From the UHGV virus genome UHGV-0115176: a stretch of DNA of 20,696 nt; one strand, 5' to 3'. Each line of letters opens with the position of its first letter. The first letter of the stretch is position 1. Positions 1,862-12,060 of this stretch are shown here, one piece after another. Origin of the DNA: a virus. The notes under the pieces are model-generated. The model was not told where the DNA came from. It worked only from the letters and a program-made list of their open reading frames with translations, and did no database searches. The position numbers and the translations under genes were made by a program.

Positions 1862-1884
1862 AAAAAGCCCCGCATCGCGAGGCT
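1862..1884 (-). terminator. Candidate intrinsic terminator (first of a tandem pair) downstream of Rz/Rz1
   Basis: Minus-strand RNA AGCCUCGC-GAU-GCGGGGCU (8 bp stem with one G-U) followed by UUUUU (plus-strand A-run 1862-1866); about 30 nt after the Rz stop at 1916. Confidence 0.5.
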
Positions 1885-1915: not shown

Positions 1916-2353
1916 TTATTTCAGGCATTGCGTCCTGATGTATTCCTGCAGGTAGTTAACCTGCGCGGTTATCCTGTCGATTCCACTTCTGAGACGGTAA
2001 TAATTGAGTTCAGCATCTGCTGTAAGTCTTGGGCTTTCTCCATCGCCCATGCTGCTGGCTCCGGTCGTTGACTTTGCACAGGTGGCGGCGACTTGCAGGC
2101 GCTTACGACCAGCAGAAACATCAGCACGGAGACTTTCGATAGTCGCGTTAGCATCAGCAAGCTCCTTTGTGTATCTGGCGTCAAGTTCTGCTACATCACG
2201 TTGACGCTTCTGCATGTCAGCAATTGTGGATGCGGCCTTATCGCGCTGCTCTTTGTAGGCGATTGCGTTATCACGGTAATGATTAACAGCCCATGACAGG
2301 CAGACGATGATGCAGATAACCAGAGCGGAGATAATCGCGGTTACTCTGTTCAT
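1916..2353 (-). CDS. Rz: Rz-type i-spanin (inner-membrane spanin)
   Basis: N-terminal TM helix ([23 protein letters not shown]) then a charged, coiled-coil-like periplasmic domain; ATG at 2351-2353 overlaps the endolysin stop (ATGA). The ORF-track start at 2365 is a GTG; the ATG is preferred. Confidence 0.8.
1969..2154 (-). CDS. Rz1: Rz1-type o-spanin lipoprotein, embedded in the +1 frame of Rz
   Basis: ORF 1969..2184 contains [20 protein letters not shown] (signal peptide with lipobox LVVSAC) followed by a Pro-rich short mature region; fully nested in Rz, the classic Rz/Rz1 arrangement. Start chosen at the Met preceding the signal peptide. Confidence 0.75.
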
Positions 2354-2853
2354 TGCTGACCCCACAAACAGATTTCACGCTCAATCTCACGACGAGTCAT
2401 GAGACCTTTCCATTGCTTACCGCCAGCATATGTCCAGCGACGTAGCTGATCACATGCACCTTTGATATCACCCTGGTTGATTTTGCGAAGAAGCGTCGAT
2501 GTTCTGAAATTGCCTGCGCCCACGTTATAGACGAACGAATAAAGAGCGCCGCGCGTTGTTTCCGGTATATCGACTTTGATGTACGGGTTAATTTGTCTGG
2601 CGACAGTGGCAAGGTCTTTATTCAAGAGTGCTTTGCATTCTGCTTTGGTATACGTTTTACCGAGCATGATGTCTTTTCCTGTATGCCCGTGACATACAGT
2701 CCATACACCAACAATATCTTTGTATGGTATGTAGCTGACACCTTCCAGGCCATCGTTACCACTTGGTCCAGTGATTAACACAGATGCTATAGCAATAGCC
2801 CCGCCACTTATCGCCGCTATTACGCTATTTCGTAGTGCCGGTGACATTGCCAT
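2350..2853 (-). CDS. R: SAR endolysin (phage lysozyme, P21 R-like)
   Basis: 167 aa; N-terminal signal-arrest-release segment [17 protein letters not shown] followed by a T4-lysozyme-type catalytic region; as I recall it is almost identical to phage 21 endolysin R21. ATG start at 2851-2853. Confidence 0.9.
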
Positions 2854-3028
2854 TCAATCTGTCCTCGCGCTCTTTGCGCTTGTAGTACCAGTTGATGCCA
2901 AATGTGCCGACAGTACAAAGAATACCAATGATGACAGCCCAGTCATTCAGGGAGAGAATGCCACCCATCGCAGTCAGTCCTCCGAAGCTGTAACTGAACC
3001 ATTCTCTGATTTTGTCCATACGGTACAT
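2825..3028 (-). CDS. S: Class II holin (pinholin-like) with dual-start motif
   Basis: 67 aa with two predicted TM segments and a charged C-terminus; begins MYRMDKI (Met1 and Met4 separated by Arg), the holin/antiholin dual-start pattern; overlaps the endolysin start by 29 nt. Confidence 0.8.
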
Positions 3029-3034
3029 GCTCTA

Positions 3035-3050
3035 CCCCTTCATTGAGGGG
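3035..3050 (-). promoter_or_regulatory. Small hairpin sequestering the holin Shine-Dalgarno (sdi-like)
   Basis: Minus-strand RNA CCCCU-CAAUGA-AGGGG; the 3' arm is the G-rich SD located 6 nt before the holin ATG. Confidence 0.35.
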
Positions 3051-3430
3051 ATTTGCTCTATTTAATTAGGAATAAGGTCGATTACTGATAGAACAAATCC
3101 AGGCTACTGTGTTTAGTAATCAGATTTGTTCGTGACCGATATGCACGGGCAAAACGGCAGGAGGTTGTTAGCGCAACCTCTTGCCACCCGCTTTCACGAA
3201 GGTCATGTGTAGAAGGCCGCAGCGTAACTATCACTGATGAATTCAGGATAGCCAGTGGCTACGGCTCAGTTTGGGTTGTGCTGTTGCTGGGCGGCGATGA
3301 CGCCTGTACGCATTTGGTGATCCGGTTCTGCTTCCGGTATTCGCTTAATTCAGCACAACGGAAAGAGCACTGGCTAACCAGGCGCGCCGACTCTTCACGA
3401 TTATCGACTCAATGCTCTTACCTGTTGTGC

Positions 3431-3478
3431 AAATAAAAAAAGCCACCGTTGCAACTTAAGAGTCACTAACGGCAGCTT
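3431..3478 (-). terminator. Candidate intrinsic terminator immediately 3' of HNH endonuclease gene 1
   Basis: Minus-strand RNA stem GCUGCCGUU / AACGGUGGC (9 bp including 2 G-U) with a 17-nt loop, followed by U7AUUU (plus-strand A-run 3431-3441). The long loop lowers confidence. Confidence 0.35.
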
Positions 3479-3484
3479 ACATCT

Positions 3485-3997
3485 TTAAACGGTATGATAT
3501 TTCATTCTGGCTGCCTCAAAAGCCGCAGCGGCAAGTTCGGCAGTGTCATGGTATCCAAGGTTAATACACTTTCCAGACGCATTAATTCTTGCTCTCCATT
3601 TCCCGTACTTAGCATCCCAAGACACGCCACGGTATCCAGATTTATTATTCTTCTGAATTTTCCTGTTTTGCATATTTTCGGAATGAGTGACAAGACGAAG
3701 ATTTGATATCCGGTTATCTGTTCTTACCCTGTTGATGTGATCAATAAAACCATCGGGCATGGTGCCATAAACAATCAACCATGCCAGTCTGTGAGCAGGG
3801 CATGCTTTACCATTAATCATAATCATTAAATACCCATCAGAATTTATTGATGAGCATTTCTTGAAAGCAAAACGAGAGTTCCATGTCAAAGTGGTCCTCT
3901 CTCTCCCCTGCCTCCATCTCCAGTGAAAGTCGCCTGATGATGGATTGTAATCAACAACAGAAAGCACCATTTCTGGCGTTAATTTTATTTCTTTCAT
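3485..3997 (-). CDS. HNH homing endonuclease with C-terminal AP2-type DNA-binding domain (copy 1)
   Basis: 170 aa; motif GFIDHINRVRTDNRISNLRLVTHSENMQN (HNH) then YRGVSWDAKYGKWRARI...GYHDTAELAAAAFEAA (AP2-like). ATG at 3995-3997 with AAGGT SD. Confidence 0.85.
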   Translation of the reverse strand: MKEIKLTPEMVLSVVDYNPSSGDFHWRWRQGRERTTLTWNSRFAFKKCSSINSDGYLMIMINGKACPAHRLAWLIVYGTMPDGFIDHINRVRTDNRISNLRLVTHSENMQNRKIQKNNKSGYRGVSWDAKYGKWRARINASGKCINLGYHDTAELAAAAFEAARMKYHTV

Positions 3998-4115: not shown

Positions 4116-4144
4116 ATGCAAAAAAGCCCACAGGAGGTGGGCTT
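4116..4144 (-). terminator. tR'-like intrinsic terminator downstream of Q
   Basis: Minus-strand RNA AAGCCCAC-CUCCU-GUGGGCUU (perfect 8-bp stem) followed by UUUUUUGC; about 50 nt after the Q stop codon (4192-4194). Confidence 0.6.
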
Positions 4145-4184
4145 GTGATGGTTGCTGAATGCAAAAGCAGCAGCATATGTGAAT

Positions 4185-4214
4185 ATTATGGCTAAATGGC
4201 TAATTGCATGTCAA
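4185..4214 (-). promoter_or_regulatory. Candidate late promoter pR' (-35 TTGACA, -10 CATAAT) overlapping the 3' end of Q
   Basis: Minus-strand TTGACA (plus 4209-4214), 18-nt spacer, CATAAT (plus 4185-4190) directly after the Q stop; the predicted start would give a short (~60 nt) terminated leader ending at the tR'-like hairpin, analogous to lambda 6S RNA. Confidence 0.4.
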
Positions 4215-4710
4215 GACTTTTAACAGCAACATGCTTAACTTTCTCAACACGTTTACGCATTTTGAAAGCATTTTGCATTGGTTGGTACAAAACAAATAAC
4301 GACGCTTTCAGGATGTCGTCAATTTCGTTTCTACAGGTTGCCATTGAAGGTTTTCTCCATCCCTCGCCACCACGTCCACACATCTTGCGTGGCTTTGCAG
4401 TCGCGTGATAGTAGGATGCAATTGCTCGCTTAGATGAACCATGAGCGTAGTAGCTGAGGAGGATGCCAAAGGCTTTCTTGTCAATGTACATGACGGAATC
4501 GACGACCTGAGAAATCAACATTCCATCATCATCATTACACATTGGCCTTGTCATAACTCTTCCCGGCTCTACGCTCTCCATGAACTTCGCTATTACGCTG
4601 CTCATGCGCTTTTCCAGACGACCTGAATAAACCCATGCGCCCCACAGTTCAAGCCAGCCATTCAGCCACTCATGCTGTTCTTTGGTGAGGTTTAGTTCTC
4701 TTATGCCCAC
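4192..4710 (-). CDS. Late-gene antiterminator Q (QuuD-type family)
   Basis: 172 aa; LELWGAW... and [14 protein letters not shown] motifs resemble Q-family antiterminators of E. coli prophages; sits between ninI and the lysis cassette. The start at 4708-4710 is GTG, overlapping the ninI stop. Confidence 0.75.
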
Positions 4711-5372
4711 GCGCCTTCTCCCTGTACCTGAATCAATGTGAGATTTCCGCAGAACACTGCGCCGGTATCGATATACATCTGGTTGGCAAATTTGAGCGGT
4801 TTCACTGCTGGCGTATGACCAAAGATGAACATGTCCGCGCCTTTGATTTCTTTCACGATCCCGTCTTGTGAGTTGCTGATTCGTTCGCGGTTCCAGATTA
4901 CCTGCTGATGATCAACTGGCTTTCCAAACTCGTATTCGTCACAAGGATAATCGGCGTGGCAGATGACATATTTTTTATCTTTGCTCACCAGTTCGATGAT
5001 TAACGGAAGTTCATCTGCTTTATGGGCAAGAGCTTTAGCCAGAATTTCTTTGTCGTAATCGAGATTAAAGAACCAGCCACCGCCATTAAGCAGCCAGTGA
5101 TTGACGTTTCCACGCTCTGATAAGCCATCAATCATCATGTGCTCATGGTTTCCACGTACAGCTCTGAACCAGGGGAATGTGATTAATTCCAGGCATTCAA
5201 CGTTCTCTGCACCACGATCAACCAAATCGCCAACCGAGATAAGCAGGTCTTTTTTGGTGTCGAATCCAATCGTATCCAGTTTGTTCATCAGGTTCGTGTA
5301 GCATCCGTGCAGGTCGCCAGCTACCCAAATATTTCGGTATTTGCTGCCATCAATTCTTTCGTAGATATTCAT
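4701..5372 (-). CDS. ninI: Ser/Thr protein phosphatase NinI (lambda PPase)
   Basis: 223 aa; metallophosphatase motifs GDLHG, GDLVDRG, GNHE; near-identical over its length to lambda NinI as I recall it; the ATG overlaps the ninG stop. Confidence 0.9.
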
Positions 5373-10903: not shown

Positions 10904-12060
10904 TTGCGCCCCCTTACCTCTGAAGGGTTCAGCGACAAATTTATGAGACTGGCCAGTAGCGCCGCGTCGTTGATGCGGTCATACAGACTTACAGCCAGCG
11001 GGGATTCGGCTTTTGCCAACATGGGATAAAGCTGCTGCAGCCAGACCTTGTGGATTACCGACAGGTGGGAGTAAAGCACGCTGGCGTTATCTGCGGCATC
11101 GCTCAGCGTGGATGGCTTTGAAAGCAGTTTTTCCATCTGGTTAAAGGCATTTATGTATGCCTCTTTGAACCGGGCAGCACGTTTACCCGTGAAACCCATA
11201 GCAAGAAACGCAAAACCGTCTCGTGTGATTTGATAGCAAGGGAGCTTGCGTGTACCACCGTTCGGTTGATTTACCGAAATCGATGTCTCCGCAAAATTGC
11301 GGGCACAAAACTCTGGGGAACAATCCAGAGTGCGGATCTTTTTCAGCACATCGTCGTGACGCTTGGAGAAGAAGTTGGCAACAGCCAAAGAAGTGGTAAC
11401 GGCCTGGCCGTTGTCAATGGTGATTTCAGGTTGAGTGAGGGCTGGGATCGTAGCCATGATGGCAGCCTCCGTTGACAGTGAAAAACTTCCACCACCGGAA
11501 ACGCCAATTTCACTGGTGGTGAACTGGACGGGGTTGGCGTAACCGGCGTCAACGGAGACCGGCGCACCTTTCGGTGCCCCCGCCCAGCCCACCATAATCT
11601 GGATGTGAGCAAATGCGGACGATAAAAAAGACGCTGGCGCGTCATACATCGCCGTTGACAATTTCAGGACGCCAATCCCGGCACCCGCTTTATAAGGTGC
11701 CTGAGCAGTGTAACGTCCCGGAATTGCAGAATCAATATGCTGGTGGTCCTTCACACTCAACAAAATCACGCCTGAATTTCCACAAAGGACTAAAGCACTC
11801 ATGCGGGTAGTCTTTGCGAAGATAGATAACGCGCTGTGTTTCTGGCTCCCAACGAATAACATGGACATAAAGCCCTCTTCCGTCACGAAACCAGCGGTTA
11901 AGTTCCTGCACAACTCGCCCCCCACAGTCAGGTAAAGTTCTCTGTGGTTACTTACAGCCAGGTGATTTGGTAATCTGCATTCATGCCGTAACAACAGGTG
12001 TTCAGCGACGCTGACCACCAGCTGTTGCGACAAACGGTTATTTGCCGTTAAACTATTCAT
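10900..12060 (-). CDS. Rha-family phage regulatory protein, long ORF with a ~200-codon N-terminal extension (canonical Rha start at 11457)
   Basis: The segment from the internal ATG at 11455-11457 (GGAGG SD 8 nt upstream) reads MATIPALTQPEITIDNGQAVTTSLAVANFFSKRHDDVLKKIRTLD...ITRDGFAFLAMGFTGKRAARFKEAYINAFN, a Rha-type N-terminus. The same frame stays open for 201 further codons upstream to an ATG at 12058-12060 that overlaps the preceding gene's stop. Confidence 0.55.
   Translation of the reverse strand: MNSLTANNRLSQQLVVSVAEHLLLRHECRLPNHLAVSNHRELYLTVGGELCRNLTAGFVTEEGFMSMLFVGSQKHSALSIFAKTTRMSALVLCGNSGVILLSVKDHQHIDSAIPGRYTAQAPYKAGAGIGVLKLSTAMYDAPASFLSSAFAHIQIMVGWAGAPKGAPVSVDAGYANPVQFTTSEIGVSGGGSFSLSTEAAIMATIPALTQPEITIDNGQAVTTSLAVANFFSKRHDDVLKKIRTLDCSPEFCARNFAETSISVNQPNGGTRKLPCYQITRDGFAFLAMGFTGKRAARFKEAYINAFNQMEKLLSKPSTLSDAADNASVLYSHLSVIHKVWLQQLYPMLAKAESPLAVSLYDRINDAALLASLINLSLNPSEVRGRK

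Follow-up and report, generated by a model that had tools for sequence, protein, structure and literature searches.

A mosaic lysis cassette with an HP1-family holin, a predicted dual start and a lambda-type leader hairpin

How two holin forms could be drawn from one short gene, and what kind of membrane lesion its product would make, are the questions raised by the lysis genes at positions 1,916 to 3,050 of UHGV-0115176. The window, meaning the whole stretch of DNA analysed, is 20,696 nt long, and a preliminary description had recognised in it a P21-type cassette, textbook but complete, with a dual-start holin, a hairpin sequestering the holin Shine-Dalgarno (SD) sequence, a signal-arrest-release (SAR) endolysin and nested Rz/Rz1 genes. 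All of the elements lie on the minus strand, at the coordinates of that description.

A complete lysis module of mixed ancestry

The features of the cassette and its flanks are as follows.

3033–3441, minus strand: lambda-type late-operon leader, directly upstream of the holin gene (96.6% identity over 409 nt to lambda 44775–45181)
3035–3050, minus strand: sdi-type hairpin CCCCU-CAAUGA-AGGGG, its 5′ arm common with lambda sdi and its 3′ arm the SD core (folding, conservation)
3034–3040, minus strand: SD sequence AAGGGGU for AUG1 (best anti-SD duplex, −7.6 kcal/mol, 6-nt spacing)
2825–3028, minus strand: long form of the holin, 67 aa from Met1, predicted antiholin (PF16080, E = 4e-21; phrog_20 holin)
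2825–3019, minus strand: short form of the holin, 64 aa from Met4, predicted effector holin (Met4 conservation, start of the Pfam profile, relatives)
2948–3001, minus strand: holin transmembrane domain (TMD) 1, residues 10–27, weakly hydrophobic, SAR-like (mean Kyte-Doolittle [KD] hydropathy 1.02, 50% G/A/S/T)
2885–2941, minus strand: holin TMD2, residues 30–48 (mean KD 1.48; KD17 peak 1.90 at residues 24–40)
2350–2853, minus strand: SAR endolysin, a GH24 lysozyme orthologous to R21/RrrD (PF00959, PDB 4ZPU/3HDE, identity to R21)
2770–2826, minus strand: SAR segment of the endolysin (mean KD 2.09, 58% G/A/S/T, no charged residue)
1916–2353, minus strand: Rz (i-spanin) with an N-terminal TMD (PF03245, E = 8e-37; phrog_13)
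1969–2154, minus strand: Rz1 (o-spanin lipoprotein), inside Rz in the +1 frame (PF06085, E = 2e-20; phrog_3198)
1862–1884, minus strand: intrinsic-terminator-like hairpin AGCCUCGCGAUGCGGGGCU followed by UUUU, downstream of Rz (read from the sequence)

The four genes, identified by Pfam, PHROG and PDB matches, make up an ordinary phage lysis module of holin, membrane-tethered lysozyme and nested Rz/Rz1, which is complete, as had been proposed, and belongs to a type already known and sequenced in many phages; nothing in the module is new. Essentially the same module is formed by genes 13/19/15 of the P22-like Salmonella phages PS34, Emek, BTP1, ST104-type and SPN9CC, and DNA identity to the lysis genes annotated in Emek, BTP1, PS34 and SPN9CC is 92–97%. 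At the protein level, the holin is 98.5–100%, the endolysin 92–98% and Rz 92–97% identical to those of the Salmonella phages, which carry the same hairpin. In these phages, the endolysin and Rz genes are separated by ∼90 bp (orf30), a spacer that the window lacks, and Q is of the lambda/P22 type; the antiterminator region to which the module is joined here is Q21-like. The element that carries the cassette is probably a lambdoid Escherichia coli prophage, a P22-like/lambda mosaic, of which the cassette would be the late lysis module. Rfam and tRNA scans gave no match within or near the cassette.

The endolysin gene (2853 to 2350, with an alternative ATG at 2847 that corresponds to Met1 of R21/RrrD) encodes a protein matching PF00959 with an E value of 1e-45 and the structures of RrrD (PDB 4ZPU) and R21 (PDB 3HDE) with E values of about 1e-107, the range for 3HDE, 3HDF and 4ZPU being 1e-95 to 1e-108. 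It is 95.8% identical to phage 21 R, which identifies it as a true SAR lysozyme. The N-terminal SAR segment claimed for it was borne out: the uncharged stretch of 19 residues aligns to the SAR segment of R21 and is nearly identical with it, with closely similar hydropathy (mean KD 2.09 and 2.11 for R21) and small-residue content (58% and 63% G/A/S/T).

The Rz start overlaps the endolysin stop codon (ATGA), and the protein has an N-terminal TMD of 23 residues with a mean KD of 2.71. Rz1 (2154 to 1969) is entirely embedded in Rz (2353 to 1916) in the +1 frame, as described; its ATG is preceded at 7 nt by an AAGGAG SD sequence, its lipobox reads VSA|C (Cys20), and the PF06085 match covers the mature residues 20–58. 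Identity of Rz to the Emek protein is 96.6%, falling to 58% for Rz of P21 and lambda; Rz1 is about 40% identical to its P21 and lambda counterparts. The pair is a two-component spanin of the embedded lambda type, and its proteins are of the PS34/Emek type. Downstream of Rz, the site in Emek that corresponds to AGCCUCGCGAUGCGGGGCU is annotated as a rho-independent terminator.

The term P21-type therefore fits the endolysin but neither the holin, which falls into PF16080 and has no BLASTP similarity to S21, nor Rz and Rz1 at the identities given above. The cassette shares with that of phage 21 (the S21-71/S21-68 pinholin, R21 and Rz/Rz1; the DLP12 relative is essD-rrrD) the gene order and the nested spanins, but its holin gene follows a leader resembling that of lambda and not that of P21. 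The module is a mosaic of an R21-like endolysin, an HP1-family holin, Rz/Rz1 of the PS34/Emek type and a lambda leader.

The holin, its family and its two candidate starts

The 67-aa holin (3028 to 2825) is a class II holin of the HP1 family, matching PF16080 at 75 bits, and is 100% identical to the holin of Salmonella phage Emek and 98.5% identical to PS34 gp13. It stays below the cutoff for PF04971, the S21 family (19.5 bits against 26, E = 1e-3). Because it misses this threshold, pinholin behavior is not assured, and together with the BLASTP result and a TMD1 that is more hydrophobic than that of S21 (mean KD of 1.02 versus 0.33), the family assignment would suit a canonical class II holin making large holes, with the SAR endolysin freed by general membrane permeabilization; the label P21-type would then be wrong in mechanism as well. 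We nevertheless consider such a holin unlikely. By hhalign, the protein is a remote, full-length homologue of S21 (probability of 77%, E = 2e-5), with the M1/M4-D-K-I termini aligned, and relatives of 89 aa match both PF16080 and PF04971 (e.g., P0042). Half of the TMD1 residues are Gly, Ala, Ser or Thr (57% in S21). The downstream neighbor of the holin is, moreover, an R21/RrrD-type lysozyme here, in related phages and in every E. coli match listed.

As in S21, two TMDs are predicted, with a shorter TMD1 than in S21 and a periplasmic loop of 2 residues only. A standard hydropathy threshold finds TMD2 alone, but S21 gives the same result, and the two-TMD topology is therefore not refuted by the missed TMD1. 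The AlphaFold model has helices at residues 3–22 and 27–58 (pLDDT of about 82 for the second) and a low overall confidence (mean pLDDT of 66), for which reason it was left out of fold searches.

The holin begins M1-Y2-R3-M4-D-K-I. The preliminary description had read two Met residues separated by Arg; the two in-frame Met residues and the basic residue between them are there, but the spacer is Tyr-Arg and not Arg alone. The dual-start motif itself is well conserved, since M-x-[RK]-M or M-[RK]-M occurs in 35 of 39 species-level loci (118 loci overall), the basic residue always being Arg or Lys. Met1, the basic residue and Met4 are kept among relatives while residue 2 varies (Y/Q/H/T/A/K); in Yersinia relatives the pattern is shortened to M-R-M. 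Met4 is at least 90% conserved, some relatives begin only at its equivalent (e.g., L014), and the PF16080 profile starts at residue 5, i.e., after Met4. The corresponding terminus of S21, M-K-S-M-D-K-I, aligns with M-x-x-M-D-K-I of the holin, and the N terminus carries a net charge of +1 in the long form and of 0 in the short form, the same as in S21-71 and S21-68.

The initiation region has a single strong anti-SD complement, the SD sequence AAGGGGU at −12 to −6. It is spaced 6 nt from AUG1 and 15 nt from AUG4, the latter being without a clear SD of its own. This SD lies in the 3′ arm of the hairpin, as had been claimed. The hairpin (3050 to 3035) has a 5-bp stem and a 6-nt loop and spans −22 to −7 from AUG1. 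Its folding energy is −6.8 kcal/mol for the isolated element and −10.2 kcal/mol when a 31-nt stretch around it is folded (z = −2.07, with 7 of 200 shuffles folding equally well). With 5 bp and z values of about −1 to −2, the hairpin taken singly is weak. The SD is paired with a probability of 0.82, compared to a background median of 0.49, and a value of at least 0.8 is seen at about 10% of the 132 SD-bearing start sites used as background; a single hairpin of such strength is not statistically unusual. A consensus scan flagged the same hairpin as a plus-strand terminator, which we rejected given the poor T-run and no credible plus-strand gene upstream. A first test of SD occlusion against background was also dropped, its threshold having been picked after the data were seen (21 of 131 non-holin starts pass).

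These local properties could also belong to a holin with a single start at Met1, in which Met4 is a conserved internal residue, the hairpin just lowers holin translation and no antiholin isoform is made: the sole strong SD is optimally spaced for AUG1 and far from AUG4, databases annotate only the 67-aa form, and ordinary start sites reach equal SD occlusion at the frequency given above. We regard this as very unlikely, as it is at odds with the retention of M1-x-[RK]-M4 around a free residue 2, with the Yersinia M-R-M variant, with relatives starting at the Met4 equivalent and with a Pfam profile that begins after it. Lambda, with the same leader and hairpin geometry, makes two products at about 1:2 (bioRxiv 10.1101/2025.05.14.654169), and P21, with the same 9-nt spacing between AUGs, has both S21-71 and S21-68 in its annotation. 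From homology and anatomy, we infer that both starts are in use, that the long form is an antiholin and that the holin behaves as a pinholin; we found no experiments on this holin, or on the dual start of PS34/ST64T/SPN9CC-type holins, in the searchable literature.

The leader hairpin in lambda and among relatives

Lambda sdi is a stem-loop at −21 to −7 (bioRxiv 10.1101/2025.05.14.654169). The likeness to it proposed in the preliminary description turned out to be understated. The leader identity with lambda ends 5 nt before the lambda S start position; identity to lambda is complete over the 5′ arm of the hairpin and ∼190 nt upstream, divergence begins in the loop, and in both phages a G-run SD forms the 3′ arm at a near-equal position. 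The hairpin is a positional homologue of sdi and not a mere analogue. The stems differ in detail (AUCCCC/GGGGGU with a 5-nt loop in lambda, CCCCU/AGGGG with a 6-nt loop here), and the genes behind them are unrelated, lambda S being a 107-aa class I holin with three TMDs and the protein here a 67-aa class II holin. Both have two in-frame AUGs with a basic residue between (Met1-Lys2-Met3 in lambda, giving the S107 antiholin and the S105 holin), 6 nt apart in lambda and 9 nt here. Lambda has a second, intragenic stem-loop (lambda nt 31–47) that cooperates in start-site partition, for which we saw no convincing counterpart: a fold of 2965–3070 gave no stable stem (z = +0.35), and the sole intragenic structure noted was a weak UGUACC-GUAU-GGACA hairpin spanning the two holin AUGs.

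Hairpins covering the SD were present in all 41 distinct holin leaders (39 relatives, lambda and P21). For comparison with background we used a threshold-free pairing-probability test, in which representatives of seven leader classes differed from background SD pairing with a Mann-Whitney P value of 1.3e-4. Within the S21-like leader class, 92.6% of cells were paired, compared to 34–48% in slid controls. One position shows A-U, U-A and U-G pairs, a second G-U, A-U and G-C; the covariation is modest, one pair having changed on both sides. The main comparative support comes from unrelated leader classes with the same architecture, and analogous SD-covering stems precede holin relatives in the Citrobacter/Kluyvera MTRMS class, Yersinia and P21. 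Among 120 viral contigs with the leader motif, about 96 have lambda S (MKM...) and about 24 the holin studied here (MYRM...), each holin type bringing its own pairing 3′ arm behind the shared motif. Natural stem alleles comprise the 5-bp CCCCU/AGGGG, a 7-bp AUCCCCU/AGGGGGU and a UAGAGC-to-UGGAGC change. Judged comparatively, sequestration of the SD is real. We consider it very unlikely that the hairpin is a passive passenger of the lambda leader or of a recombination joint, retained through linkage and without regulatory function for the holin, in spite of the upstream identity to lambda and the very little variation among >80 near-identical copies, for the pairing is kept where 3′ arm and loop differ from lambda, the stem has both 5-bp and 7-bp alleles, and the unrelated leaders carry their own stems.

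Proposed control of lysis

Our preferred reading, which we consider likely, is a lambda-like split of translation initiation between antiholin and holin that feeds a pinholin/SAR-endolysin/spanin pathway. Late transcription, antiterminated by Q, would run via the lambda-type leader into the four genes. With the hairpin open, ribosomes would bind the SD and start at Met1, giving the 67-aa form with one extra N-terminal positive charge, the predicted antiholin; with the hairpin closed, initiation would move to Met4 and give the 64-aa effector holin. Since opening and closing of the hairpin would select the start codon, we propose that its stability determines how much of each form is made relative to the other and has a part in the timing of lysis. 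The product, a two-TMD class II holin with a weakly hydrophobic, Gly/Ser/Thr-rich TMD1, would most likely be a pinholin that depolarizes the membrane at a set time. Depolarization would free the tethered SAR endolysin into the periplasm, where it would refold to active lysozyme, and the Rz/Rz1 spanin would act last, disrupting the outer membrane. Of these steps, we infer that both start codons are used, that the long form is the antiholin, that pinholes form and that timing is affected.

More tentatively, the sdi hairpin may be a split, portable regulatory joint, with a 5′ arm from the conserved lambdoid late leader and a loop, 3′ arm/SD and dual start supplied by each holin gene. It is possible, if doubtful, that recombination in the loop could swap holins while keeping ratio control and that the stem alleles would tune lysis timing.

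The lysis module of the prophage is intact and probably functional, and modules of this type have already been sequenced from many Salmonella and E. coli phages; its significance beyond correct annotation is small. Public records give only one product, the 67-aa form, for this HP1-family holin, and the conserved Met1/Met4 pair together with the lambda-homologous sdi hairpin suggests that an antiholin isoform also deserves annotation. The shared leader illustrates how lambdoid mosaicism can put one translational control element before unrelated holins.

The lysis cassette and its genes

The lysis module, on the minus strand of this E. coli prophage, is real and complete, and the preliminary description of it was right in kind and in its coordinates.

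Features of the lysis cassette (window coordinates)
3050..3035, minus: hairpin CCCCU-CAAUGA-AGGGG
3034..3029, minus: spacer UAGAGC, from hairpin to AUG1
3028, minus: holin AUG1 (Met1)
3019, minus: holin AUG4 (Met4)
2825, minus: holin stop, 67 aa counted from Met1
2853..2350, minus: endolysin, 29-nt overlap with holin, second ATG at 2847
2353..1916, minus: Rz, start overlapping the endolysin stop (ATGA)
2154..1969, minus: Rz1, +1 frame, wholly within Rz
1884..1862, minus: terminator-like hairpin downstream of Rz

Pfam identifies the endolysin (PF00959, E = 1e-45), Rz (PF03245, E = 8e-37) and Rz1 (PF06085, E = 2e-20), and PHROGs assignments of the cassette genes agree. The endolysin shares 95.8% identity with the phage 21 R protein. 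Among solved structures it matches RrrD (4ZPU) and full-length phage 21 R (3HDE) with E ∼1e-107, as well as phage 21 R without its signal-arrest-release (SAR) segment (3HDF). The 19-residue SAR segment carries no charged residues and shows a mean Kyte-Doolittle (KD) hydropathy of 2.09 with 58% G/A/S/T, practically the same as that of R21 (2.11 and 63%). Rz1 shows Arg and Lys in its n-region, followed by a hydrophobic core and the lipobox V-S-A-C20, and an SD of its own (AAGGAG) lies 7 nt upstream. The earlier claims of a SAR endolysin and nested spanins therefore stand.

The endolysin ORF starts M-A-M (2847-2853, minus), the ATG at 2853 having a GAGGA SD 8 nt upstream and that at 2847 corresponding to Met1 of R21 and RrrD; PGAP takes 2847 as the start and the Emek and PS34 phage records take 2853. 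In both phages a spacer of ∼90 bp, annotated as orf30 in Emek, separates the endolysin stop from the start of Rz (locus L001, 3852-3941; locus L002, 3675-3764); it is missing at window 2347-2353, so that here stop and start overlap. The terminator after Rz is followed directly by the gene for a 165-aa protein with KilA-N and ORF11CD3 domains (1217-1714, minus), an arrangement shared with Emek orf173.

The leader hairpin and lambda sdi

Lambda 44775-45181, the late leader that ends 5 nt before S, shares 96.6% identity with window 3033-3441. The alignment shows no differences from ∼190 nt upstream through AAAUCCCCU, and divergence begins only in the hairpin loop. The lambda element, AUCCCC-UUAUU-GGGGGU-AAGAC-AUG-AAG-AUG, has a free energy of -9.7 kcal/mol; the window element, CCCCU-CAAUGA-AGGGG-UAGAGC-AUG-UAC-CGU-AUG, reaches -6.8 kcal/mol when folded by itself and -10.2 kcal/mol within its sequence context. 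In lambda S, a GGGGG SD at -12..-7 serves Met1 and an unusual UAAG SD serves Met3, a stem-loop at -21..-7 controls access to GGGGG, and, together with an intragenic stem-loop, these elements split initiation ∼1:2 in favor of holin (bioRxiv 10.1101/2025.05.14.654169). The window hairpin lies at -22..-7 with GGGG at -10..-7, and within the holin initiation region no sequence but AAGGGGU complements the anti-SD strongly (-7.6 kcal/mol). The leader motif TAAATAGAGCAAATCCCC occurs in 120 viral contigs, ∼96 of which run into lambda S (MKMPEKH...) and ∼24 into the window-type holin (MYRMDKI...), each group with its own 3' arm, still pairing. By homology the putative regulatory hairpin is lambda's own sdi, an element already known, and its 5' arm is part of a leader common to two unrelated holin genes.

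Taken alone, the hairpin is no more than would be expected by chance: shuffle z-scores are -1 to -2, and its SD pairing probability of 0.82 compares with values of at least 0.8 at ∼10% of the 132 start sites with an SD that served as background and came from the same loci. Across relatives, sequestration exceeds chance. From 39 species-level and 80 viral loci encoding holin relatives we obtained 39 distinct leaders, and in all of them, as in lambda and P21, the SD folds against an upstream pyrimidine arm. These include unrelated sequence classes, such as Yersinia GCCC...GGGAGGGGG and the Citrobacter/Kluyvera/Klebsiella class CGCCA-UCCGA-nnnn-UCGGA-GGUG, whose 9-bp bulged stem (∼-12 kcal/mol) buries GGAGGUG. 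Sequences representing seven leader classes pair above background (Mann-Whitney p = 1.3e-4). In the S21-like class, pairing is seen in 92.6% of cells, compared with 34-48% in slid controls, with modest covariation (A-U/U-A/U-G at one position, G-U/A-U/G-C at another).

Natural alleles also occur at the position corresponding to window 3029-3052: L047, L068 and L139 carry AUCCCCU-CAAUAA-AGGGGGU, a 7-bp stem of -11.3 kcal/mol compared to 5 bp in the window, and in L086 the spacer UAGAGC is changed to UGGAGC, creating a GGAG nearer AUG4. Either could alter the initiation ratio at the two start codons.

The holin and its two start codons

The holin belongs to PF16080 (HP1-family holin, E = 4e-21), and BLASTP against S21 and lambda S found no similarity. 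Its score against the S21 family profile is 19.5 bits, under the 26-bit cutoff; hhalign aligns it with S21 end to end (probability 77%, E = 2e-5), with M1, M4-D-K-I, the SxxxWA motif and the C-terminal (K)REDR in register. It is therefore a distant S21 relative placed in a different family. TMD1 (18 residues, mean KD 1.02, 50% G/A/S/T) and TMD2 (19 residues, 1.48) parallel those of S21 (0.33 with 57% G/A/S/T, and 1.44), and a low-confidence AlphaFold model (mean pLDDT 66) has two helices, residues 3-22 and 27-58. This topology is compatible with a predicted pinholin but is no proof of one.

The Met codons had been described as separated by Arg alone; Tyr-Arg stands between them. Close family members keep M1, R3 and M4 and vary at residue 2 (Y/Q/H), 89-aa relatives start M-[TAK]-[RK]-M-S and Yersinia relatives M-R-M. 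The dual-start motif, always with Arg or Lys, is present in 35 of the 39 species-level loci; in the exceptions (L014, L026, L032, L041) the ORF is broken or has one start only, L014 beginning at the M4 equivalent. N-terminal net charges are +1 (long form) and 0 (short form), the same as in S21-71 and S21-68, annotated in the phage 21 record as antipinholin and pinholin.

The 89-aa relatives (MTRMSTIYSRLSYGTG..., L009-L042, from Citrobacter, Kluyvera, Klebsiella and Pectobacterium) match PF16080 and PF04971 alike, carry an ∼22-aa insertion between TMD1 and TMD2 and have the strongest SD-burying hairpins (9 bp, ∼-12.5 kcal/mol).

An anti-SD scan of the initiation region gave no clear SD for AUG4, and RNA folding found no counterpart of the lambda intragenic stem in the holin gene; both are weak points of the following proposed mechanism. 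An open hairpin would expose the SD and favor Met1, yielding the long, more positive form, the predicted antiholin, while a closed one would move initiation to Met4 and the effector holin. At a critical concentration the holin would depolarize the membrane, the SAR endolysin would then be released and become active, and Rz/Rz1 would finally disrupt the outer membrane. A third weak point is that a literature search turned up no experimental work on the holin itself.

Neighboring features and mosaic origin

In the late-operon leader, a 170-aa ORF with HNH_3 and AP2 endonuclease domains (3485-3997, minus) has a terminator on either side: upstream, 4144..4124 (AAGCCCACC-UCCUG-UGGGCUU, then a U-run), and downstream, 3479..3430, which agrees at 100% with L124 1177-1226, the tR' region of phage 21. 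The ORF resembles a mobile endonuclease cassette put in at the site of lambda orf-64, the P21 tRNAs and Stx-phage stx. The Q antiterminator (PF06530) and promoter region (4170-4723, minus) shares 85% DNA identity with the phage 21 Q/pR' region. Between the hexamers of its promoter (TTGACA-18-CATAAT, 4214..4185) lies a tandem ATTAGCCA/TTTAGCCA, in the same place as the P21 QBE ATTGAGCA/AATGAGCA, which suggests a related Q with differing binding-element specificity. At 11512-11599 and 11624-11700 (minus) Rfam has adjacent matches, to a C4 antisense RNA (81 bits) and to an isrK Hfq-binding RNA (62 bits), as is typical for prophage control regions of the P1/P7-like immI or antirepressor kind.

The whole window is an E. 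coli prophage best matched by strain VR50, where PGAP labels read "phage holin family protein", "lysozyme RrrD" and "lysis protein". A survey of 5426 complete E. coli genomes found the holin together with its hairpin in 84, almost always with an identity of at least 99%, and with an RrrD-type lysozyme next after the holin in every E. coli match among those listed. The 1.45-kb cassette region matches 318 phage records, best the Salmonella P22-like phages Emek (97%), BTP1, PS34 (genes 13/19/15) and SPN9CC, plus a Klebsiella phage; the module is already known, near-identical cassettes being annotated in many phages. Among P22-like phages, holins of three non-homologous types and lysins of three types were already known (PMC2629481).

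The label "P21-type" given previously fits the endolysin, the only close P21 orthologue in the cassette, but neither the holin, of another family, nor the spanins, with Rz at 58% and Rz1 at ∼40% identity to their P21 and lambda counterparts. As a whole, the module is a lambda/P21/P22-like mosaic.
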